Of a DNA stretch of 43,697 nucleotides, positions 5,424-43,697 are shown one piece after another. The stretch covers positions 1 through 43,697 of IMG/VR virus record IMGVR_UViG_3300012961_000002; one strand, given 5' to 3'. Source of the stretch: a virus. The stretch's first letter is position 1. Every line of letters starts with the position of its first letter. Below the pieces are notes generated by a model. It did not search any database and had not been told where the DNA came from. It saw only the letters and a list, made by a program, of their open reading frames with translations. Position numbers and translations under genes: made by a program.

Positions 5424-6551
5424 GTGCGCCCCGTAACTGATTCTTTCCTGAACACGGTTCGGGGCCCACACAAGGCGGTATTCCGTGCCAGGCTGGTCTA
5501 CCCCTGGGTTGTCGGGGTAGACCCCAGCACGGCCGGACTCCCTCTCCAGGTTATTTCTGGGGACGTGACCGTGGATGTAAATTCGGACATCAATGGCACG
5601 ATGGACTTGGTCCTGGCCGAGCCGTTCGAGAACGTCAACGCGTACGCGCACGAGATCTACCTTGAGCGCGGAGTTCAGTACGCGAACGGGACAACCGAAT
5701 ACGTAGGACTGGGGTACTTCCGCGTTAACTCGGTCGAAGATGTAGTGATTCGCTCCAAGAAGTTTAGCGGTTCTGCCATCCGAATCTCGGGTGAGGACCG
5801 AATGGCCAACCTCAGGGACGGCCGGGTTCCCAGCCCGCTTCAGTTCGGAAGTTCAGCCTCGGTCGCGTCTGTGCTCGACTTCCTGATCACGGATGTTATG
5901 CCAGGTGTGACCACGGTGTACGATTCCACGGGTTGGCCTGGTGGTTCAGCCGCCGCGACCCTGCTCGGGTCTGATCACTTCGTGGATCAGGACCGTCTGG
6001 CGTTCATTCAGGAATTGGTCCGCGCGTACGGTAAGATTTGCTACTTCGACTATGCAGGCCGATTCGTGGTGAAGACACCGCCCACCACCACGGGAACCCC
6101 GGTGTTCAACATCAACGCCGGGGCCAATGGTGTCCTGGTCCGTGCGGCTCGAACCATTTCCAGGGACGGCGTCTATAACGCCGTTGTAGCTACGGGTGAG
6201 CCGGTCGGAGATCAGGTTCCGGTCTACGGTATCGCCTTCGATAATGATCCGGCCTCGCCCACGTTTTACGGTGGCGTGTTCGGGAAGGTGCCCAAGTTCT
6301 TTTCCTCGTCGTTCCTGACCACGGACGCACAGTGCGGTTCCGCGGCTCAGAACCTTCTGGACGCTACGCACGGGTTCCCGTACTCGGTTGCCCTGGGCCT
6401 GGTTCCTAACCCCGCCCTGGAAGCGTGGGACATCATTTCGGTGACGTACAGCGAGGGGTACACCGAGGTTCACATCATCGACACGATCAAGTATTCGATG
6501 TCCGTGGATGACGAAATGGAAATCCGGACCCGTAAGCAGTATCTGTACTGA
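5424..6551 (+). CDS. minor tail protein
   Basis: 375-aa ORF with a GTG start behind AAGGAG, second gene after the tape measure. Confidence 0.6.
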   Translation: MRPVTDSFLNTVRGPHKAVFRARLVYPWVVGVDPSTAGLPLQVISGDVTVDVNSDINGTMDLVLAEPFENVNAYAHEIYLERGVQYANGTTEYVGLGYFRVNSVEDVVIRSKKFSGSAIRISGEDRMANLRDGRVPSPLQFGSSASVASVLDFLITDVMPGVTTVYDSTGWPGGSAAATLLGSDHFVDQDRLAFIQELVRAYGKICYFDYAGRFVVKTPPTTTGTPVFNINAGANGVLVRAARTISRDGVYNAVVATGEPVGDQVPVYGIAFDNDPASPTFYGGVFGKVPKFFSSSFLTTDAQCGSAAQNLLDATHGFPYSVALGLVPNPALEAWDIISVTYSEGYTEVHIIDTIKYSMSVDDEMEIRTRKQYLY

Positions 6552-28218: not shown

Positions 28219-28740
28219 TCAAGCCGCAGTCCATCCGTTTTCGGGGGCGTAGAGGACCGGGTACCCGTACGTCTTGGAGCACATTTCCTGGTAGGTCAGA
28301 GGCCCGAACATCGGAGCCCCATGGATGACCTCATCAGCCCATCGCCACCGGTCCAGAATGTACGCCCGGCTCTTGAAGACTTGGGCCTCGTAGGTCCACA
28401 CCCCCATGAACTTGGACCACGGGTATTCTTCCCGCATCCGTTCGATCACTCTGCGTACGGTTCGGCCTGAGTACACGAAGTCATCGGCGATGATGTACTC
28501 CAGGCCCACGGAGCCTTCGATCCGATAACAAGAGTGTGTCGATTGGTCATCGGGCTTGCGCACGATGGCGAACTTAGAACCTACGGTCGGGGCCACCCGA
28601 GAAACGTACACGGTTCCCGAAAGCCCGGTCCCGACGATGGTGTCAAAACTCACATCGGCAGTCCCAGCCCGGAACTCGGAGAGTAGTTTCCGATTGCTGT
28701 ACGTGAGGGCCTTGCTAAAGTAGCTATCACCCGCGCTCAT
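28219..28740 (-). CDS. type I phosphoribosyltransferase-fold protein
   Basis: PRPP-binding signature EYIIADDFVYSGRTV, plus upstream FDTIVGTGLSGTV...FAIVRK. First gene of the leftward unit. Confidence 0.65.
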   Translation of the reverse strand: MSAGDSYFSKALTYSNRKLLSEFRAGTADVSFDTIVGTGLSGTVYVSRVAPTVGSKFAIVRKPDDQSTHSCYRIEGSVGLEYIIADDFVYSGRTVRRVIERMREEYPWSKFMGVWTYEAQVFKSRAYILDRWRWADEVIHGAPMFGPLTYQEMCSKTYGYPVLYAPENGWTAA

Positions 28741-28834: not shown

Positions 28835-28877
28835 TACGCGACCTGGGAAAAGGGGCGATTACCCTCTATAAGTAGGG
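28835..28877. repeat. 43-bp direct repeat, copy 1 (DR1a)
   Basis: tacgCgacctgggaaaaggggcgattaccctctataagtaggg matches 29045-29087 with 1 mismatch. Confidence 0.9.
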
Positions 28878-28904
28878 GTAGGGGTTAAGGGATAGGGGAT
28901 AGGG
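28873..28904. repeat. G-tract iteron-like cluster (tagggg tagggg ttaaggg atagggg ataggg)
   Basis: Five TA(G)3-4 units spaced 6-8 nt apart, read directly from the sequence. Confidence 0.6.
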
Positions 28905-28906
28905 CA

Positions 28907-28921
28907 TAAGAACCTTAAACC
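28907..28921. repeat. 15-bp direct repeat, copy 1 (taagaaccttAaacc)
   Basis: Matches 28966-28980 with 1 mismatch. The two copies flank the palindromes. Confidence 0.8.
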
Positions 28922-28927
28922 TAAGAT

Positions 28928-28955
28928 CTAGAGAACCCCTTAAGGGGTTCTCTAG
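28928..28955. repeat. 28-bp perfect palindrome ctagagaaccccttaaggggttctctag
   Basis: Self-complementary over all 28 nt. Followed immediately by a 10-bp palindrome gttctagaac (28956-28965). Confidence 0.9.
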
Positions 28956-28965
28956 GTTCTAGAAC

Positions 28966-28980
28966 TAAGAACCTTGAACC
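28966..28980. repeat. 15-bp direct repeat, copy 2 (taagaaccttGaacc)
   Basis: See copy 1 at 28907-28921. Confidence 0.8.
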
Positions 28981-29044
28981 CTGGTTCCTGGATCTTATCC
29001 CCTGTACCTGAAGTTAGGGCCCCGTAACGTACAGTAGCTAAAAG

Positions 29045-29087
29045 TACGTGACCTGGGAAAAGGGGCGATTACCCTCTATAAGTAGGG
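29045..29087. repeat. 43-bp direct repeat, copy 2 (DR1b)
   Basis: See copy 1 at 28835-28877. The copies are spaced 210 bp apart. Confidence 0.9.
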
Positions 29088-29349: not shown

Positions 29350-29421
29350 TGGCCAGTAGCTCAACGGTAGAGCAAGGGACTGTTAATCCCTTAGATGTAG
29401 GTTCGAATCCTGCCCGGTCAG
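29350..29421 (+). tRNA. tRNA-Asn (GTT)
   Basis: Acceptor tggccag/ccggtca (one A:C), D stem gctc/gagc, anticodon stem aggga/tccct with loop ctGTTaa, T arm gtagg-ttcgaat-cctgc. Confidence 0.75.
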
Positions 29422-29494
29422 CTTGTTGATCCGACCTTGATCAAGTCGGGGAGACCCAGTCTAGGCGTCCTGGGATATCAAAGATTGCCAGTAA

Positions 29495-29566
29495 CGAAGA
29501 TTAACTCAGTTGGAAGAGTGCCGGTGTGAAGTACCGGATGCACAGGTTCGAATCCTGTATCTTCGG
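29495..29566 (+). tRNA. tRNA-Phe (GAA)
   Basis: Acceptor cgaagat/atcttcg, D stem actc/gagt, anticodon stem ccggt/accgg with loop gtGAAgt (G32, G37), T arm acagg-ttcgaat-cctgt. Confidence 0.75.
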
Positions 29567-29568
29567 CG

Positions 29569-29600
29569 TAGGTGAGAGATTCGGGTTCGAATCCCGGGCC
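29569..29600 (+). pseudogene. tRNA 3' fragment (variable region, T arm and a truncated acceptor)
   Basis: gtgagagat-tcggg-ttcgaat-cccgg-gcc. There is no room for a 5' half after tRNA-Phe. Confidence 0.4.
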
Positions 29601-29606
29601 ACTAGG

Positions 29607-29739
29607 TACCAGTGGGACTAGCTTAAGGGGTAAAGCGCTCACCGTTTAGCATGGATTGTGCCGCCCGGGAGGCTGGGCACCGGCTTCGAAACCCGGGATG
29701 GTAGGCATTGACCTAGGGGTTCGACTCCTCCACTCTCCG
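29607..29739 (+). pseudogene. degenerate tRNA-like segment (a good D arm, a long GC hairpin, two T-arm-like motifs, no complete cloverleaf)
   Basis: D arm ta-gctt-aaggggta-aagc. Hairpin tgccgcc...ggc-ggca. T-like motifs ccggc-ttcgaaa-cccgg and agggg-ttcgact-cctcc. I could not find matching acceptor or anticodon stems. Confidence 0.3.
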
Positions 29740-29836
29740 CAGGGTCCATCGCCACAGTTGATCCTCCCGTAGAGGCATCTGAGGTAGCTCCTGAGTCATC
29801 CAACGTGGTGCTCTGGCGGTGTTGACCCTTTACCTT

Positions 29837-29919
29837 GGATTGGTGTAGCTGGGATCTACGGCGCCGCTGCTAACGGCGTAGCCCTTAGGGGCTCGAAGGT
29901 TCGATTCCTTCCCTTTCCG
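29837..29919 (+). tRNA. tRNA-Ser (GCT), long variable arm
   Basis: Acceptor ggattgg/cctttcc (tandem U:U at 4:69 and 5:68), anticodon stem cgccg/cggcg with loop ctGCTaa, variable arm agccc-ttag-gggct, T arm gaagg-ttcgatt-ccttc. Confidence 0.6.
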
Positions 29920-29921
29920 CT

Positions 29922-29988
29922 GGAACTAGGCGGGTCTTAGGGCCCTGGATAGCCGACACTGACTCCGGTAAGAGCAGGGTCTAGTTCC
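29922..29988 (+). pseudogene. 67-nt tRNA-like element with a perfect 7-bp terminal helix but no canonical T loop
   Basis: ggaacta (29922-29928) pairs with tagttcc (29982-29988). The interior does not fold into D, anticodon and T arms. Confidence 0.3.
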
Positions 29989-29992
29989 TTAA

Positions 29993-30064
29993 CGCTCAGT
30001 GACCGAGAGACTAGGTGCCTGGTTGCAACCCAGGTTTACGCCGGTTTGAATCCGGCCTGAGTGT
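29993..30064 (+). tRNA. tRNA-Cys (GCA)
   Basis: Acceptor cgctcag/ctgagtg, anticodon stem cctgg/ccagg with loop ttGCAac, T arm gccgg-tttgaat-ccggc. Confidence 0.7.
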
Positions 30065-30068
30065 CCAA

Positions 30069-30137
30069 CCCGAGGCATCTGGGATGCGGCGCGGCTGTAA
30101 ACCGCTACCGAGTCAGGTTCGATTCCTGGTCGCGGGA
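30069..30137 (+). tRNA. tRNA-Tyr (GTA), atypical 69-nt form
   Basis: Acceptor cccgagg/tcgcggg (one mismatch). The D region is only 14 nt (catc-tgg-gatg hairpin). Anticodon stem cgcgg/ccgct with loop ctGTAaa, T arm tcagg-ttcgatt-cctgg. No long variable arm. Confidence 0.5.
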
Positions 30138-30208
30138 CTAGGCCCTGACGAGGGTCCCTAGGGCTAACGTGGCGCCTAGGCGGGATGAGCCCGACATAGC
30201 TCTCTTAT

Positions 30209-30282
30209 GCCCCTCTAGCCCAACTGGCAGAGGCGTCTGGCTCAGACCCAGAAGGTTCGGAGTTCGAATCTCCGGAGGGGTA
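30209..30282 (+). tRNA. tRNA-Leu (CAG), class-I-like (short variable region)
   Basis: Acceptor gcccctc/gaggggt, D stem gcc/ggc, anticodon stem tctgg/ccaga with loop ctCAGac, 5-nt variable region, T arm cggag-ttcgaat-ctccg, discriminator A. Confidence 0.6.
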
Positions 30283-30381
30283 CTTAACGTAGGATTGACG
30301 GCGACCAGATCCAGCCTCAGTGTCCGAATGGTCCGGATACTGCCTACGTGCGGATTGACCCACCGCTTAATCAGGGTCTCT

Positions 30382-30452
30382 GCCTTCCTCGTCTAATGGA
30401 AAGACTCGGGCGTCGTATCCCCGAAATGTCGGTTCGATTCCGTCGGTTGGCT
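30382..30452 (+). tRNA. tRNA-Thr (CGT)
   Basis: Acceptor gccttcc/ggttggc (tandem U:U), D stem gtct/agac, anticodon stem cgggc/ccccg (C:C at 31:39) with loop gtCGTat, T arm gtcgg-ttcgatt-ccgtc (one U:U). Confidence 0.5.
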
Positions 30453-30524
30453 CTAGGACCCGGTAAGCCCTGACTAAGAGCTGAGTTTGGGTCCAAGCGT
30501 CTAGCCCACGCTGAACGGGCCTCT

Positions 30525-30595
30525 GGTCCATTGGTGTAGCGGTAACACATGTGCCCCTCAAGCATATGTCCTCGGTTCGAATCCGGGATGGATCA
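30525..30595 (+). tRNA. tRNA-Glu (CTC) with C33
   Basis: Acceptor ggtccat/atggatc, D stem gtgt/acac, anticodon stem tgtgc/gcata with loop ccCTCaa (position 33 is C at 30556), T arm ctcgg-ttcgaat-ccggg. Confidence 0.65.
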
Positions 30596-30616
30596 CTTAA
30601 CCTGAGAGGAAGACCC

Positions 30617-31321
30617 GTGCGAGCCCTTCGACTCTTCCTAGCGCTGGTGCTTGGCCTCACGATGGTCATTCCCGGGGCTGAGATGGCCTCTGCGGGCACG
30701 GGAGGGTGGTGCCAGGGTCTCTACACCGGAGCACCGGTCCTGGACCTTCTGGGCGACTCTCAGACGGCAAGTGGCTCGGTCTCTGCCGAAGATCAGCGCT
30801 GGCCCTCAGTGCTGGGAGCTTCACTTCAGTCGGATGGCGCCCCGGGAACTCAGGTCTGGGTCGGTGGCGCCATCGCAGGATCGGCTACCGCCGACTACCT
30901 GCCCGGAGCGAAGTACTCGGATCATATCGAGTTCACGTCTCATCAGCCCAACCTGATCACCCTGGGATGGGGAACCAATGACTGGGCAGGCGGAGTCCCC
31001 GTCGAGACGTTCAGGGCGCAATACCAGACGATCATCGATCGAATCCGGGCTCTTAGCTCTGGCTCCACGGTCGTCATCATTCACATGCCTTGGGTGTACA
31101 ACGAGGAACTCACGAGTACCCGTGCTCCCCAGGCCGACTACCTGAACGTTGAAAAGGATCTCGCCCGTGATAACGGGCTCAAGTTCTTCGGATCGGAATT
31201 CTACTTCCCGGGAAATGATCCGTACAGTTTCAAGTCTCCCCCGGACCAGGTGCACATGACAGCGCTTGGACAGTGGGTGTTCTACTCAGCTTTCCGGAGC
31301 TTCTTGCTCGGGATGTGCTGA
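30617..31321 (+). CDS. secreted SGNH/GDSL-family hydrolase (esterase)
   Basis: GTG 30617 lies 4 nt after GAGAGGAAG. Signal-peptide-like RALRLFLALVLGLTMVIPGAEMASA. SGNH blocks LLGDSQT (I), GWGTNDW (III) and DQVH (V). The upstream part of ORF 30551.. lies inside tRNA-Glu and was discarded. Confidence 0.7.
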   Translation: MRALRLFLALVLGLTMVIPGAEMASAGTGGWCQGLYTGAPVLDLLGDSQTASGSVSAEDQRWPSVLGASLQSDGAPGTQVWVGGAIAGSATADYLPGAKYSDHIEFTSHQPNLITLGWGTNDWAGGVPVETFRAQYQTIIDRIRALSSGSTVVIIHMPWVYNEELTSTRAPQADYLNVEKDLARDNGLKFFGSEFYFPGNDPYSFKSPPDQVHMTALGQWVFYSAFRSFLLGMC

Positions 31322-31325
31322 TCGT

Positions 31326-31394
31326 TAGGGAACGCATGATGCGAGCCTGGTCTCCAAAACCGGGTGCCAGTGAGTTTGACTCTCACTTCCCTTG
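31326..31394 (+). tRNA. tRNA-Trp (CCA), atypical 69-nt form
   Basis: Acceptor tagggaa/ttccctt (U:U at 1:72). 14-nt D region (cgca-tga-tgcg hairpin). Anticodon stem ctggt/accgg with loop ctCCAaa, T arm gtgag-tttgact-ctcac. Confidence 0.5.
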
Positions 31395-31398
31395 CCAA

Positions 31399-31470
31399 TG
31401 GCGCTTAGTTCAGTGGAAGAACAACCGGCCTACACCCGGTATGTCGAGGGTTCGAATCCTTCAGTGCCAA
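31399..31470 (+). tRNA. tRNA-Val (TAC) with C33
   Basis: Acceptor tggcgct/agtgcca, D stem gttc/gaac, anticodon stem accgg/ccggt with loop ccTACac (position 33 is C at 31430), T arm gaggg-ttcgaat-ccttc. Confidence 0.7.
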
Positions 31471-31518
31471 CTTGGTCCCGTTGCAATGCGCCCCTAAGGG
31501 CGGTAACCAGGGACCTTT

Positions 31519-31592
31519 ACCCGATTAGCTCAGAGGAAAGAGCCCTTGGCTACGAACCAAGGCGGTCGCAGGTTCGAATCCTGTATCGGGTT
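31519..31592 (+). tRNA. tRNA-Arg (ACG)
   Basis: Acceptor acccgat/atcgggt, D stem gctc/gagc, anticodon stem cttgg/ccaag with loop ctACGaa, T arm gcagg-ttcgaat-cctgt. Confidence 0.8.
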
Positions 31593-31596
31593 CCAT

Positions 31597-31669
31597 ACCT
31601 TCGTAGTTCAGCGGACAGAACACCGGTTTCCTAAACCGGGTGCCGTAGGTTCGAATCCTACCGAGGGTG
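31597..31669 (+). tRNA. tRNA-Arg (CCT)
   Basis: Acceptor accttcg/cgagggt, D stem gttc/gaac, anticodon stem ccggt/accgg with loop ttCCTaa, T arm gtagg-ttcgaat-cctac. Confidence 0.8.
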
Positions 31670-31726
31670 CGTAGAGAACATAGTTGCCGGTAAAATCCAG
31701 AGCATGAACCGGACGTAGAAGTACAT

Positions 31727-31799
31727 GGGTCTATAGTTTCAACGGTAAAACCCCGGACTCTTAATCCGTGAGATCTAGGTTCGAATCCTAGTAGGCCTA
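31727..31799 (+). tRNA. tRNA-Lys (CTT)
   Basis: Acceptor gggtcta/taggcct, D stem gttt/aaac, anticodon stem ccgga/tccgt with loop ctCTTaa, T arm ctagg-ttcgaat-cctag. Confidence 0.75.
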
Positions 31800-31800
31800 C

Positions 31801-31873
31801 TGCGGGGTAGTGTAATCGGTAACATGACAGTCTCATAAGCTGTGCGATGCGGGTTCGAGTCCCGTCCCCGACA
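31801..31873 (+). tRNA. tRNA-Met (CAT) (or Ile2 if lysidine-modified)
   Basis: Acceptor tgcgggg/ccccgac (1:72 and 2:71 unpaired), D stem gtgt/acat, anticodon stem acagt/gctgt with loop ctCATaa, T arm gcggg-ttcgagt-cccgt. Confidence 0.6.
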
Positions 31874-31915
31874 CCTTTCCCCTGCACCGAGGGAGACGAA
31901 ACTATCGGGCACTAT

Positions 31916-31987
31916 ATGGTACGAGGAAGATGGTAATCCGCTCCGTTCGGGCCGGAGAGATACTGGGTTCGACTCCCAGGTGCCAGA
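31916..31987 (+). tRNA. tRNA-Pro (CGG)
   Basis: Acceptor atggtac/gtgccag (A:G at 1:72), D stem gga/tcc, anticodon stem ctccg/cggag with loop ttCGGgc, T arm ctggg-ttcgact-cccag. Confidence 0.6.
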
Positions 31988-32018
31988 CTAGGTCCCCCGT
32001 GATAAGCGGGGGCCGCAA

Positions 32019-32089
32019 TACCGGTTCGTCTAATGGCAAGATACCAGGCTCTGAACCTGGGGACTGAGGTTCGACCCCTTGACCGGTAG
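32019..32089 (+). tRNA. tRNA-Gln (CTG)
   Basis: Acceptor taccggt/accggta, D stem gtct/agat, anticodon stem ccagg/cctgg with loop ctCTGaa, T arm tgagg-ttcgacc-ccttg. Confidence 0.75.
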
Positions 32090-32091
32090 CT

Positions 32092-32162
32092 CTGTGATTA
32101 GTTCAATGGAAGAATATCCGCCTGTGACGCGGAAGACGTGGGATCGATACCCACATTACAGT
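32092..32162 (+). tRNA. tRNA-His (GTG), no encoded G-1
   Basis: Acceptor ctgtgat/attacag, D stem gttc/gaat, anticodon stem tccgc/gcgga with loop ctGTGac, T arm gtggg-atcgata-cccac (A at position 54). The nt at -1 is T. Confidence 0.65.
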
Positions 32163-32166
32163 CCAT

Positions 32167-32239
32167 GCTGTTCGCGTGTCCGGTTGACCGAAGTTCTCTG
32201 ATAAGGAACTTGTGCTAGGTTCAACTCCTAGGAGCAGTA
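32167..32239 (+). tRNA. tRNA-Ile (GAT)
   Basis: Acceptor gctgttc/gagcagt (two G:U), anticodon stem gttct/ggaac with loop ctGATaa, T arm ctagg-ttcaact-cctag. Confidence 0.65.
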
Positions 32240-32325
32240 CTGTCCCGAGTGATCCTCGGGCGAGTGGGCGCGAAATAGTCCCCCAGTTGGCTAGATCTGG
32301 GTTATCAAATGATTCTAGCTTCAAT

Positions 32326-32397
32326 GGTCCGTTAGCTCAACGGTAGAGCACCATTCTGTCAAGATGGACGGCGCGGGTTCGAATCCCGTACGGATCG
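32326..32397 (+). tRNA. tRNA-Asp (GTC)
   Basis: Acceptor ggtccgt/acggatc, D stem gctc/gagc, anticodon stem ccatt/gatgg with loop ctGTCaa, T arm gcggg-ttcgaat-cccgt. Confidence 0.8.
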
Positions 32398-32436
32398 CAA
32401 GCCTGGCCTAGGGGTAACTCCCTGGTTGGGCGCTTT

Positions 32437-32508
32437 GGGGTTGTAGCTCAAATGGTAGAGCACCGGCGTTGCATACCGGGTGAACGGGTTCGATTCCCGT
32501 CTTCTCCA
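32437..32508 (+). tRNA. tRNA-Ala (TGC)
   Basis: Acceptor ggggttg/cttctcc (G3:U70 present; tandem U:U at 5:68 and 6:67), D stem gctc/gagc, anticodon stem ccggc/accgg (C:A at 31:39) with loop gtTGCat, T arm acggg-ttcgatt-cccgt. Confidence 0.6.
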
Positions 32509-32546
32509 CAGGGGCTCACTGCTGCGCGCAAGCATAGTCCCACAAT

Positions 32547-32620
32547 GGGGTATTGATGTTTAACGGATAGCATGTCAGTCTTCCAAACTGAATGTGTGGG
32601 TTCGAATCCCGCATACCTCA
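32547..32620 (+). tRNA. tRNA-Gly (TCC)
   Basis: Acceptor ggggtat/atacctc, D stem atgt/gcat, anticodon stem tcagt/actga with loop ctTCCaa, T arm gtggg-ttcgaat-cccgc. Confidence 0.75.
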
Positions 32621-32629
32621 CTTCTAGTT

Positions 32630-32661
32630 CCCGCCCGTGCTCCGGTACTGGGCGGGCTTTT
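32630..32661 (+). terminator. intrinsic terminator closing the tRNA array
   Basis: cccgccc (32630-32636) pairs with gggcggg (32650-32656), followed by ctttta. Confidence 0.65.
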
Positions 32662-32676
32662 ACTTATGGAGGCCGC

Positions 32677-34472: not shown

Positions 34473-35126
34473 GTGGATGTCTCCGTTTTGATCCCATGGC
34501 GCGGCGGAGACCCTCAGCGCGAACGCGTGTTCGAGTACGTCTTGATGATGTGGGAGAAGACCGGCGCCGATATCTGCGTCGGCGAAGACGACCCTGGTGG
34601 CCCGTTCAACTGCTCTCGTGCCCAGAACCGAGCCTTTCGGCTCGCCAAGCATGATCGACTGATGATGATCGGTGCCGACACGGTCCCCGATTTCGAACTC
34701 GTCCAAGTTGTATACAATCGACTGGATACCGTCGACTGGTTCCCGCTGTTCCACGAGACTGCGTACTACTCTCAGGAGTCAACGGCCCGGATCCTCTCCG
34801 GAGCGCCCCGAGCCGCTGAGCCCTTTGAGTACGTCCTGCCGTTCTGCACAGGGCCCGTTGCCTTGACCCGTGACGCGTACGTCGCCACGGGGGGCATGGA
34901 TGAGCGGTTCTCCGGTTGGGGCTACGAAGATGCTGCGTTCCGACAGACGCTAGCTGGCCTGTTCGGTGCCCCGCCTGCCGAGCCAAAGACCGCGCGCTGC
35001 CTCTGGCATGAGGTGGGTCATCGTATTGCCGTGTCACCCAACGAAGTGCTCATGAGGGACTATACGCCGCTGACGGAGCCCGTGTCAACCCGTGCCTATC
35101 TGGATCAGAGGGGGTCGTTCCTGTGA
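34473..35126 (+). CDS. glycosyltransferase (GT2 / galactosyltransferase-like)
   Basis: Starts VSVLIPWRG. C-terminal motif GGMDERFSGWGYEDAAF is typical of GT-A enzymes with a Glyco_transf_7C-like end. Confidence 0.65.
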   Translation: MDVSVLIPWRGGDPQRERVFEYVLMMWEKTGADICVGEDDPGGPFNCSRAQNRAFRLAKHDRLMMIGADTVPDFELVQVVYNRLDTVDWFPLFHETAYYSQESTARILSGAPRAAEPFEYVLPFCTGPVALTRDAYVATGGMDERFSGWGYEDAAFRQTLAGLFGAPPAEPKTARCLWHEVGHRIAVSPNEVLMRDYTPLTEPVSTRAYLDQRGSFL

Positions 35127-41320: not shown

Positions 41321-42436
41321 ATGCGGATTCGTGCCCGAGGGGGATCACCTGTGATGACGGCGCCTACAGAGGTGGCCTTGCGGATGATCGCCTTGGGTGC
41401 GACTCCGGATTCGCTCCGCAGCAAGCACGTTAAGCCACGCCAGGACCTCGGTCGACCGGCCCGGGTCCTGGCGGTGGTTCATGGGTGGATGCCGTATCTT
41501 GCCGCTGGTTCTGAGCGCATGGTCCAACACATGTTGGACGCGCTCCCGCGCGAAGAGTTCGAGGTCCACATCCTTTCCCTGGGGTACGGAAACGACCCGG
41601 GGATCAATAACTTTTACATGTACGAGGGTACTCCGGTTACCGTGGGATACGAACCGCCGTTCGTTCCAGACATTATTGTCACGCACCACGGCCCGGGTTC
41701 CCGTGTAGTTCAGGCGCTTTGCCAGGACTTCCCGGACGCCCGTGTAGTGGCCGTGTACCACAACGAGCGGTACGATATCGAAGACATCAAGTCTTTGAAC
41801 GCTGAACTGGAAGTCTTTAATACCTGGTGGGTCGGTGGCTCGGTTCGCCGTGCCGGTGCCGCGGGTTTGAGCGGCCTGGAACAGGGCATCATCGTCGTTC
41901 ATCCGCCCCTGGAGCCGGACCGCCACCGAGTCGAAGAGACTGGGTCCGCGGTTACACTAGTCAATCTGCAAGAGAACAAGGGTGTGCGCGTGTTCCAGGA
42001 GCTTGCGCGCAGGATGCCCGATGTTCGATTCCTGGGCGTGGAAGGCACGCACGGGACCCAGGAACGGCCGAAGATCCCGAACGTCGAGTACATGCCCGTG
42101 ACGCAGGACATGCGCGACGTGTGGCGAAAGTCCAGGGTTGTTCTCATGCCGTCGGGGTACGAGTCTTATGGAATGGTTGCCGCCGAGGCACAGGTGAACG
42201 GTATTCCGGTCATCGCCAACCCCACCGCGGGCCTAGCCGAATGCCTGGGCAACGCTGGTATTTTCATTCCGCGGTCGAACATTGACGACTATGAGCGAGC
42301 TTTGAGGCTTCTCCTCGAAGATCGTAAGCACTATCAGGAGCGGTCCGAGATGGCCCGTCTTCGAGGGCAGGAACTTCAGTCTCAGACAGAGCGGGAACTG
42401 GCCCGATTCATTGATGAAATGAGGAGGCTGTCATGA
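41321..42436 (+). CDS. glycosyltransferase (GT-B, GT1/GT4-like) inside the head module
   Basis: C-terminal motif SGYESYGMVAAEAQVNGIPVIA (E-x7-E type). The ATG follows AAGGAG. The start is somewhat uncertain. Confidence 0.65.
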   Translation: MRIRARGGSPVMTAPTEVALRMIALGATPDSLRSKHVKPRQDLGRPARVLAVVHGWMPYLAAGSERMVQHMLDALPREEFEVHILSLGYGNDPGINNFYMYEGTPVTVGYEPPFVPDIIVTHHGPGSRVVQALCQDFPDARVVAVYHNERYDIEDIKSLNAELEVFNTWWVGGSVRRAGAAGLSGLEQGIIVVHPPLEPDRHRVEETGSAVTLVNLQENKGVRVFQELARRMPDVRFLGVEGTHGTQERPKIPNVEYMPVTQDMRDVWRKSRVVLMPSGYESYGMVAAEAQVNGIPVIANPTAGLAECLGNAGIFIPRSNIDDYERALRLLLEDRKHYQERSEMARLRGQELQSQTERELARFIDEMRRLS

Positions 42437-43571: not shown

Positions 43572-43697
43572 ATGACTCTCAACGATAACGGGTACTTCCT
43601 TGTATCCCGCACCGTTCTGTACACCGCACCCGTAGATACCGCAGCGCCTAGCGCTGCGTCCCTGGACAGCCCTGGGGTTGCGTGGACCATTCTGGGC
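43572..43697 (+). CDS. major tail protein (5' part; continues at nt 124 after removing the duplicated 123 nt)
   Basis: ATG 43572 lies 8 nt after GGAG. Nt 43575-43697 equal nt 1-123. Confidence 0.7.
   Translation, partial: MTLNDNGYFLVSRTVLYTAPVDTAAPSAASLDSPGVAWTILG
43575..43697. repeat. terminal overlap, second copy
   Basis: Identical to nt 1-123. Confidence 0.95.

Follow-up and report, generated by a model that had tools for sequence, protein, structure and literature searches.

A predicted cluster of 22 tRNA genes with at least one decoder for each of the 20 amino acids in a 43.6-kb phage genome

Inventory of the tRNA genes

The IMG/VR virus record IMGVR_UViG_3300012961_000002, analysed here over its whole length of 43,697 nucleotides (hereafter the window), carries a dense array of transfer RNA (tRNA) genes that together offer at least one predicted decoder for each of the 20 amino acids. 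With default settings, ARAGORN identified 20 tRNA genes within 29350-32621, every one on the + strand, and two further elements with the anticodons of tyrosine (Tyr-GTA) and tryptophan (Trp-CCA) were added on the comparative evidence presented below. The total thus reaches 22 genes for 20 amino acids, with serine and arginine each represented twice. The same number of genes and amino acids, and the same strand, had been proposed in a first-pass annotation made from the letters alone, and both statements hold. Its gene list gave 21 names only, Ser-CGA being left out, and the claim that every amino acid occurs once and arginine twice has to be corrected, as serine is also doubled.

The genes were further compared with the Rfam tRNA model RF00005, whose gathering threshold of 29 bits was taken as the mark of a canonical tRNA. 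Upstream of a 705-nt protein-coding sequence (CDS) located inside the array are found, in this order, tRNA-Asn (GTT; 29350-29422; ARAGORN score 122.7, Rfam 63.8 bits), with 10 compensatory stem changes relative to the two related arrays introduced below; tRNA-Phe (GAA; 29495-29567; 114.2, 59.8 bits); the class II tRNA-Ser (CGA; 29653-29740; 100.1), with a long variable arm and only a weak tRNA-Sec match in Rfam; a second class II tRNA-Ser (GCT; 29837-29920; 106.7), with compensatory changes relative to the relatives; tRNA-Cys (GCA, CCA encoded; 29993-30067; 108.3, 47.3 bits); the non-canonical tRNA-Tyr (GTA; 30069-30138); a class I tRNA-Leu (CAG; 30209-30283; 119.3, 55.7 bits); tRNA-Thr (CGT; 30382-30453; 106.0, 33.8 bits); and tRNA-Glu (CTC; 30525-30596; 115.4, 56.8 bits). 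Downstream of the CDS follow the non-canonical tRNA-Trp (CCA; 31324-31397); tRNA-Val (TAC; 31399-31471; 114.3, 60.9 bits); tRNA-Arg (ACG, CCA encoded; 31519-31595; 126.9, 55.7 bits); a second tRNA-Arg (CCT; 31597-31670; 120.5, 65.9 bits); tRNA-Lys (CTT; 31727-31800; 115.0, 58 bits); a tRNA with anticodon CAT, for Met or possibly Ile2 (31801-31875; 112.1, 50.2 bits); tRNA-Pro (CGG; 31916-31988; 107.5), with six compensatory pairs relative to one of the relatives (L001); tRNA-Gln (CTG; 32019-32090; 108.8, 51.2 bits); tRNA-His (GTG, CCA encoded; 32092-32165; 108.5, 58.3 bits); tRNA-Ile (GAT; 32167-32240; 104.9), with a weak, non-canonical D arm; tRNA-Asp (GTC; 32326-32398; 114.6, 64.2 bits); tRNA-Ala (TGC; 32437-32509; 107.6, 51.4 bits), with a G3.U70 pair read from the sequence; and tRNA-Gly (TCC; 32547-32621; 106.9, 39.5 bits). 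In Gordonia phages of 114 kb, tRNA-Gly matches the last of these genes at 94.5%.

A check with ARAGORN and covariance models had been suggested by the first-pass annotation. Besides the 20 default calls of ARAGORN, 17 of the 22 genes score above the RF00005 gathering threshold, 16 of them in a scan of the whole window and Pro-CGG (38.9 bits) only when a short stretch and laxer filters were used. Tyr and Trp escape the default settings. Ser-CGA, Ser-GCT and Ile-GAT are backed by ARAGORN alone (default settings, scores 100-107). Further ARAGORN calls that appear at a 70% threshold are located in the embedded CDS or overlap real genes, and were rejected as noise. Also rejected was an additional tRNA between Phe and Ser-CGA, where a T-arm-like hairpin (CGGGTTCGAATCCCGG, 29582-29600) lacks a surrounding cloverleaf and is without a conserved counterpart in L001; at most it may represent a tRNA remnant.

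The array spans 3272 nt, or 7.49% of the window, including the 705-nt CDS. The earlier estimate of 7.5% of the genome is therefore right for the span; the tRNA genes proper total 1642 nt, which is 3.8% of the genome. With 6.7 genes per kb (22 genes in 3272 nt), or 8.6 per kb without the CDS, the locus exceeds both the ~15-20 genes and the ~2 tRNA genes per kb that we set as the lower bounds of a cluster.

A closed phage genome

An exact terminal overlap of 123 bp (1-123 = 43575-43697) indicates a closed circular assembly of ~43,574 bp, with 60% GC and a GC content at third codon positions of ~0.71-0.79. Its open reading frames (ORFs) include genes for structure and lysis (TerS, TerL, an HK97-fold capsid protein, tail tube, tape measure, a collagen-like tail protein and an Amidase_2 lysin) as well as for replication and nucleic acid cleavage (PolA, a Toprim primase, a DnaB-like helicase, a RecB-like nuclease and endonuclease VII). 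The tRNA array thus resides in a virus, between leftward replication genes and rightward structural genes, and this gene content points to a siphovirus-type actinophage. The Pfam scan covered 38 ORFs, namely all those of at least 130 amino acids in the gene set and a few others, smaller ORFs lying outside it. Among these 38 there was no integrase, and the phage is apparently lytic; nor was there an RNA ligase, a tRNA-repair gene or a tRNA-modification gene.

Cultured relatives are distant. TerL is at best 40% identical to its counterparts in cultured phages (of Streptomyces, Arthrobacter and Curtobacterium), and among GenBank phages megablast returned only a 55-nt tRNA-Gly match and sensitive blastn only matches the size of a single tRNA. 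A search for the host with TerL in 185,579 reference genomes likewise returned no relative.

Conservation and covariation of the array

Two relatives carry a comparable array, L001, a 42-kb IMG/VR contig (TerL 87% identical; esterase encoded by the embedded CDS 74% identical), and L053, a 24.8-kb Logan contig (esterase 59% identical). Gene content and order are common to the three arrays, save for two differences in L053, which is without Arg-CCT and has a canonical Trp-CCA gene before the esterase gene instead of after it. All 20 amino acids are kept in the three phages despite this moved and altered Trp gene. Sequence identity is unevenly distributed: mean values to L001 and L053 are 86% and 83% for the tRNA genes, 76% and 67% for the esterase DNA, and 58% on average for the spacers. 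Individual genes can be closer still, as with Ser-CGA, which is 98-99% identical in both relatives. Near-identical patches between the relatives suggest recombination.

Stem pairs were compared between the 22 genes of the window and the two relatives, which gave 860 pairs, five of them with gaps. While 683 pairs are unchanged, 101 have changed on both sides and 40 on one side with pairing preserved, and 31 are broken. Pairing is thus retained in 141 of the 172 changed pairs, against 70.3±6.1 in shuffled data (maximum 95 in 5000 shuffles). Because of this excess of compensatory changes over the shuffles, the genes of the array are best regarded as tRNA genes kept by selection for structure.

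Tyrosine and tryptophan tRNAs with a reduced D arm

Tyr-GTA and Trp-CCA, uncalled by ARAGORN under default settings, were both called in its mitochondrial mode (-mt), which is the only mode to detect Trp. Tyr (score 89.5) also appears, as the one additional call, at a threshold of 80% (-ps80). In Rfam, Tyr has a tRNA-Sec match at E=7 only, and Trp a tRNA-Sec match of 26.5 bits (E=0.03).

The Tyr gene lies 1 nt after Cys in the window, L001 and L053. It would encode a class I tRNA of 69-70 nt, with a variable region of 2 nt and without a long variable arm, in which the D region is reduced to a 4-bp hairpin with a UGG triloop immediately after the acceptor stem. Covariation was assessed in eight viral contigs, made up of the three arrays and five more contigs having the same anticodon arm, so that the invariance of this arm in the set is a product of the search strategy. 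Acceptor pairs 1, 3, 4, 6 and 7 covary, as do the D hairpin and the T stem, and the anticodon helix has a covarying extension of 3 bp (G-C to A-U; C-G to G-C). An A5.G68 mismatch and the discriminator A73 are constant in 8/8 sequences. ARAGORN draws this tRNA with an 8/4 fold, as in allo-tRNAs, which are defined by an acceptor stem of 8-9 bp and a T stem of 4-3 bp (8/4 or 9/3; PMC5389517). This fold was rejected, since covariation favours 7/5 for acceptor and T stems: position 8 covaries with its D-hairpin partner (C-G vs G-C) and the first T-stem pair is retained as U.G or G-C.

The D hairpin of Trp (CGCA-UGA-UGCG) likewise has 4 bp and a 3-nt loop (UGA), and directly adjoins the acceptor stem. 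We prefer the register 31326-31394, with G73 and an encoded CCA (to 31397), while ARAGORN in mitochondrial mode sets 31324-31396. Compensatory changes relative to L001 occur in the anticodon and T stems. Among the 31 distinct Trp genes of viral contigs that share the anticodon arm of the window Trp, ~9-12 have the mini D arm, most of which have a 7/7 acceptor stem and G73 (e.g. L020, L019 and L023). In contrast, the L053 Trp (5899-5972), located directly after Glu and before the esterase gene, is canonical, is called by ARAGORN under default settings, and is only 58% identical to the window Trp (31324-31397). In this phage Trp appears to have been exchanged or relocated without loss of completeness.

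We judge both elements to be real, if structurally unusual, tRNA genes, because the two sole extra tRNA-like elements of the array carry exactly the two missing anticodon identities and because L053 supplies Trp in another way. The mini D-arm design recurs in L011-L013, L017-L020, L023, L028, L034, L047 and L050 in addition to Tyr and Trp of the window; its loop is usually UGG, and such tRNAs are missed by RF00005 and give weak tRNA-Sec matches instead. Phages are not mentioned in a 2020 review of non-canonical tRNAs (PMC7609411). Since reduced D-arm Tyr and Trp genes, together with the class I Leu described below, recur in many viral contigs and are missed by general covariance models, the phage tRNA counts delivered by standard pipelines are probably too low.

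Other unusual tRNAs of the set

Leu-CAG is a class I tRNA of 75 nt, with a 5-nt variable loop, a G1.U72 pair and A73, the latter being the principal Leu determinant in E. coli. Neither Leu-CAG nor Tyr-GTA has the long variable arm expected of bacterial class II tRNAs: tRNA-Leu is long-armed everywhere except in animal mitochondria, and bacterial tRNA-Tyr belongs to class II (PMC9976931). The leucyl-tRNA synthetase (LeuRS) of E. coli requires A73 and contacts with the D and T loops, not the long arm (PMC9976931). The class I form of Leu is not new to databases, because a 75-nt tRNA-Leu is already annotated in the cultured Gordonia phages Nedarya (L057, 603-677) and Boopy (L058). The tRNA-Leu without a long variable arm in the window and in these Gordonia phages is 75-76 nt long with A73.

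Ile-GAT has no RF00005 match even at E<=10 on a short stretch. Its 74 nucleotides are identical (74/74) across the window, L001 (7658-7731) and L053 (7438-7511), which contrasts with esterase proteins only 59-74% identical in the same phages.

Bacterial initiator tRNA-fMet is marked by three consecutive G-C pairs in the anticodon stem and by a C1xA72 mismatch. The CAT tRNA of the array shows neither feature. Its anticodon stem is ACAGU/GCUGU, without the three G-C pairs of an initiator, and its top two acceptor positions are unpaired (U.C and G.A); no initiator-type tRNA is evident among the 22 genes. For tRNA-His, G-1:C73 is a usual feature in bacteria; in His-GTG (32092-32165) position -1 is T and position 73 is U in the ARAGORN fold, so that G-1:C73 is not evident.

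Amino-acid completeness, codon coverage and wobble bases

To what extent the content of the array departs from chance was estimated by drawing 22 distinct anticodons at random from an assumed bacterial repertoire of 43 anticodons. The median draw covered 14 amino acids, and all 20 were covered with p ~8.5e-6; completeness is therefore taken to be a selected property. The view of the first-pass annotation that the set is complete and minimal is borne out at this level, where it is nearly non-redundant, and fails at the level of codons.

Codon usage was derived from 11,179 codons in 62 self-trained ORF calls. Under strict wobble rules, 35 of the 61 sense codons are readable by the phage tRNAs, corresponding to 66% of phage usage, and these values rise to 41 of 61 and 82% if U34 reads all four codons of the Val, Ala and Gly boxes. 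Codons without a phage decoder include GCC, GGC, ACC, GTC, CTC, CCC, TCC, CGG and GAA, and the set holds no G34 decoder for any four-codon box. An autonomous decoding set, in which every used sense codon is readable, is thus not what the array provides. Leftward and rightward genes are covered alike (67% vs 65%).

Within these limits, the choice of wobble base follows the codon usage of the phage itself. C34 is found where NNG far exceeds NNA (Leu, Pro, Ser, Thr, Lys, Gln, Glu and Arg-AGG), U34 is found for Val, Ala and Gly, and G34, which is obligatory there, for the NNY pairs. For Leu, Pro, Ser, Lys, Gln and Glu, the C34 tRNA reads the codon used most, in agreement with the earlier observation that the anticodons fit phage-preferred codons; for Thr it reads the one ranking second. 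In viral contigs of 51-53% GC (whole contigs 47-56 kb), arrays with the Tyr gene have 12-20 tRNAs. These lower-GC arrays use U34 in Leu-TAG, Pro-TGG, Thr-TGT and Glu-TTC, where NNA is about equal to or more frequent than NNG, and retain C34 for Lys and Gln, where NNG still dominates. Such tracking of phage usage by the wobble base is what a translation-supply function predicts; it does not argue against codon compensation, nor is it a demonstration of counter-defence. The first-pass annotation had concluded from the match to the phage's own codons that the set is not a patch for rare codons. This does not follow, because compensation is defined relative to a host; under a supply model, tRNAs that fit the frequent codons of the phage would be expected.

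Relation to known tRNA arrays

Clusters of tRNA genes have been known in phages for decades, and the idea that they counter host immunity is now mainstream. In a 2019 survey, phage clusters of 15-37 tRNA genes were found only in genomes of 72-617 kb, with eight clusters reaching all 20 isotypes and most having 16/20 (PMC6409571). Examples of the surveyed type are mycobacteriophage clusters C1, M and V, Streptomyces and Gordonia phages of 110-130 kb, and the T5 tRNA region. Like the clusters described by Morgado and Vicente (2019; PMC6409571), the array is arranged head to tail on one strand, falls within 2-10 tRNA genes per kb and is interspersed with a small CDS; those phages mostly lack an integrase, and none was found among the scanned ORFs here. 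In contrast to the surveyed clusters, it occurs in a genome of 43.6 kb (below 72 kb) and reaches 20/20 isotypes with two duplicates only.

The array also resembles the tRNA array units of Mycobacterium (PMC5966550) and the L-arrays of cyanobacteria (PMC8421152), which are dense and cover most amino acids. These units comprise ~20-40 genes, are linked to horizontal transfer and were proposed to aid translation under stress (PMC5966550, PMC8421152). They are larger and more redundant, and reside in chromosomes, plasmids or prophages, whereas the present array is carried by an apparently lytic 43.6-kb phage.

A further resemblance is with the tRNA sets of animal mitochondria, which consist of 22 tRNAs, one per amino acid and two duplicates. 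Mitochondrial sets decode every codon by means of U34 in the four-codon boxes, whereas the phage relies on C34 for Leu, Pro, Thr and Ser-TCN and has 20-26 codons that its set cannot read. Both have Leu and Tyr of class I, and in both some D arms are reduced and seen only in the mitochondrial mode of ARAGORN (PMC9976931). This resemblance is to be read as an analogy, with no homology implied.

Similar arrays are present in other IMG/VR contigs. The new points are the small size of the genome, the nearly non-redundant set, and the reduced D arm of what appear to be the Tyr and Trp tRNAs.

Possible function of the cluster

Gene calls, conservation, covariation, amino-acid completeness, codon coverage and wobble bases, all computed, lead us to regard the locus as a genuine and selectively maintained phage tRNA cluster of 22 genes. 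We propose, with a probability of about 0.6, that it acts as a tuned buffer with at least one decoder per amino acid, which would supplement the host tRNA pool, not replace it. The array, including the esterase gene, would be co-transcribed rightward from the divergent control region upstream of it to the terminator at ~32630-32664. Host RNase P and 3' processing enzymes would excise the tRNAs, and the host CCA-adding enzyme would complete them, a step that would be needed because only Cys, Trp, Arg-ACG and His encode CCA. Charging by host aminoacyl-tRNA synthetases would then add phage-encoded tRNAs to the host pool, in a choice tuned to the codon preferences of the phage, such that no single shortage in a host isoacceptor family could stall phage protein synthesis. 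Possible sources of such shortages are codon-usage mismatch, host shut-off and tRNA cleavage. A buffer is preferred over autonomous decoding because 20-26 of the 61 sense codons, as well as initiation, would still require host tRNAs, so that the phage tRNAs by themselves could not sustain translation.

Several observations weigh against a tuned buffer. Five of the 22 genes (Ser-CGA, Ser-GCT, Ile-GAT, Tyr-GTA and Trp-CCA) fail RF00005, Tyr, Trp and Ile carry non-canonical D arms, and the acceptor stem of Trp has 6/7 pairs in the window and 5/7 in L001. Because Leu and Tyr have no long arm, host enzymes might fail to charge them. For Ala, Gly, Thr and Val, whose NNC codons are very frequent, the set holds no G34 decoder, where a pure demand model would favour one. 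The codon counts depend on our own selection of ORFs, the comparison with lower-GC arrays rests on small ORF samples, and co-transcription, processing, charging and the buffering benefit are inferred from what is a metagenome assembly.

Classical codon compensation would account for part of these data. The host pool would be poor in C34 decoders of NNG codons and in the other species supplied, and the array would correct this mismatch, mainly for highly expressed late genes. C34 tRNAs reading the most frequent codons of the phage agree with such a role, as do the shift of related arrays to U34 where phage codon usage shifts and the position of the array at the head of a rightward operon leading into the structural genes. 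Yet compensation does not predict a decoder for every amino acid, including the single-codon Met and Trp and the universally decoded NNY pairs; the U34 tRNAs of Val, Ala and Gly have as their cognate codons those that the phage uses least in these boxes, and the coverage of leftward and rightward genes is alike. We consider compensation possible and, as the principal function, somewhat unlikely. Selection acting on amino acids, not on codons, speaks for counter-defence, the reading proposed in the first-pass annotation, in which the array would provide nuclease-insensitive replacements for host tRNAs cut by PrrC/RloC, VapC, PARIS or retron- and CRISPR-linked tRNases, any isotype being a potential target. 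The odd shapes of several members (mini D-arm Tyr and Trp, class I Leu and Tyr, the aberrant D arm of Ile) could evade such enzymes and count mildly in its favour. This hypothesis was published for mycobacteriophages, with nuclease-insensitive phage tRNAs (van den Berg et al. 2023, PMC10264068), a T5 tRNA was demonstrated to neutralise PARIS (Burman et al. 2024, PMC11464382), and tRNA-cleaving immunity keeps growing (PMC12851939). Those cases match the idea and rest on known hosts and nucleases or on experiments, whereas the present array is known from sequence alone. Counting mildly against a strong form of counter-defence, the array holds Ser-CGA, reported as avoided by mycobacteriophages (PMC10264068). 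Wobble bases that track phage codons are expected for supply, whereas a decoy or replacement could do without them; no more than 66-82% of codon usage would be readable if host tRNAs were broadly destroyed; and the scanned ORFs contained neither an RNA ligase nor a repair gene. Counter-defence is plausible and already published; as the main explanation here we hold it to be unlikely.

A more far-reaching proposal, which we consider doubtful, is that the arrays described here and those of similar uncultured phage contigs (whole contigs 47-56 kb) contain an undescribed structural class of bacterial-virus tRNAs. In members of this class, the acceptor stem would be followed without a gap by a 4-bp D hairpin closed with a UGG triloop, and Tyr would have no long variable arm and the invariant A5.G68. 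They would be working Tyr and Trp decoders, overlooked by standard covariance models, whose shape was selected to escape the host enzymes that recognise or cleave tRNAs, and amino-acid-complete arrays would be an insurance cassette against tRNA-targeting immunity. At the opposite end, the array might be a passenger or decaying element, a horizontally mobile tRNA array unit taken up as a block with little or no benefit, Tyr and Trp being degenerating pseudogenes. It is true that such units move between the chromosomes, plasmids and phages of actinobacteria (PMC5966550), that patchy near-identical blocks between relatives suggest recombination, and that Tyr, Trp and Ile fail standard models, with an imperfect acceptor stem in Trp. 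Against this stand the strong excess of compensatory substitutions in all stems, Tyr included, the free divergence of spacers while genes stay conserved, and the maintenance of 20 amino acids across three phages whose esterases are only 59-74% identical; moreover, 3.3 kb of useless DNA in a capsid-limited 43.6-kb genome should vanish quickly. Covariation and the contrast between genes and spacers thus contradict a passenger or pseudogene origin, which appears very improbable.

A closed 43.6-kb genome of siphovirus type here devotes 7.5% of its length to an array with a decoder for every amino acid. It is a compact and manageable natural system in which to ask at what level phage tRNAs are selected, that of the amino acid, the codon or the defence of the host. 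Its incompleteness at the codon level limits any model of host-independent translation.

Embedded and neighbouring features

The CDS embedded in the array (30617-31321, + strand) encodes a 234-aa esterase of the SGNH/GDSL type (Pfam Lipase_GDSL_2, 6.9e-19), with a signal-peptide-like segment at its N terminus. Its start is GTG 30617, and an identical 234-aa product is called in the source assembly (ENA ERZ27311761); the start of the longest ORF (30551) was rejected, as the gene would overlap tRNA-Glu. The esterase gene occupies the same place in the arrays of L001 (6001-6767; 74% amino acid identity) and L053 (6001-6705; 59%), and its product could have a role in lysis or in the cell envelope. 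The best cellular homologue, in an Amycolatopsis chromosome, is 58% identical, too weak a match for naming a host. Homologues with 53-58% identity are found beside terminase genes in tRNA-free phage contigs (L054, 1012-1746, among those listed), and the SGNH gene was accordingly dismissed as a universal partner of such arrays. The lower-GC arrays (L017, 2893-3330; L012) have one mid-array CDS in a gap of ~676 nt, which encodes an unrelated 145-aa protein and no esterase.

A divergent region of 610 nt separates the first tRNA (29350) from the leftward gene that bounds it at 28740. This control region contains two 43-nt direct repeats (28835-29087, + strand; 2 matches vs 0 expected), the copies of which (28835-28877 and 29045-29087) are 98% identical, lie 210 nt apart and are oriented toward the tRNAs. 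No further copy of the repeat exists in the window, and L001 lacks its exact core; from its position and orientation, it may be a promoter or operator element. At its other end, the array is closed by an intrinsic terminator (32630-32664, + strand), in which a CCCGCCC...GGGCGGG hairpin is followed by CUUUUACUU. A terminator at this place had been noted in the first-pass annotation, and the prediction is supported by the hairpin at 32630-32656 with its U run (-21.5 kcal/mol, z = -2.6) and by compensatory changes in L001, where it is conserved.

Two spacers depart from the ~50% identity to L001 of the others, namely Tyr-Leu (30139-30208; 97%) and ArgCCT-Lys (31671-31726; 84%). Functional RNAs were considered and rejected, as the L053 sequence is unrelated at the Tyr-Leu spacer and Rfam gave nothing; likewise, the hammerhead ribozyme suggested by the motif CUGACGAG has no counterpart in Rfam at E<=10. 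These conserved spacers are likelier to be recent mosaic recombination blocks.

The first leftward gene beside the array (28219-28740, - strand) is phosphoribosyltransferase-like, with Pfam matches below threshold, and L053 has a longer phosphoribosyltransferase at the same place. The rightward arm encodes two glycosyltransferases, the first (34473-35126, + strand) ahead of the terminase genes and the second (41321-42436, + strand) directly behind the capsid gene, and the tail-tube ORF crosses the junction of the circle.

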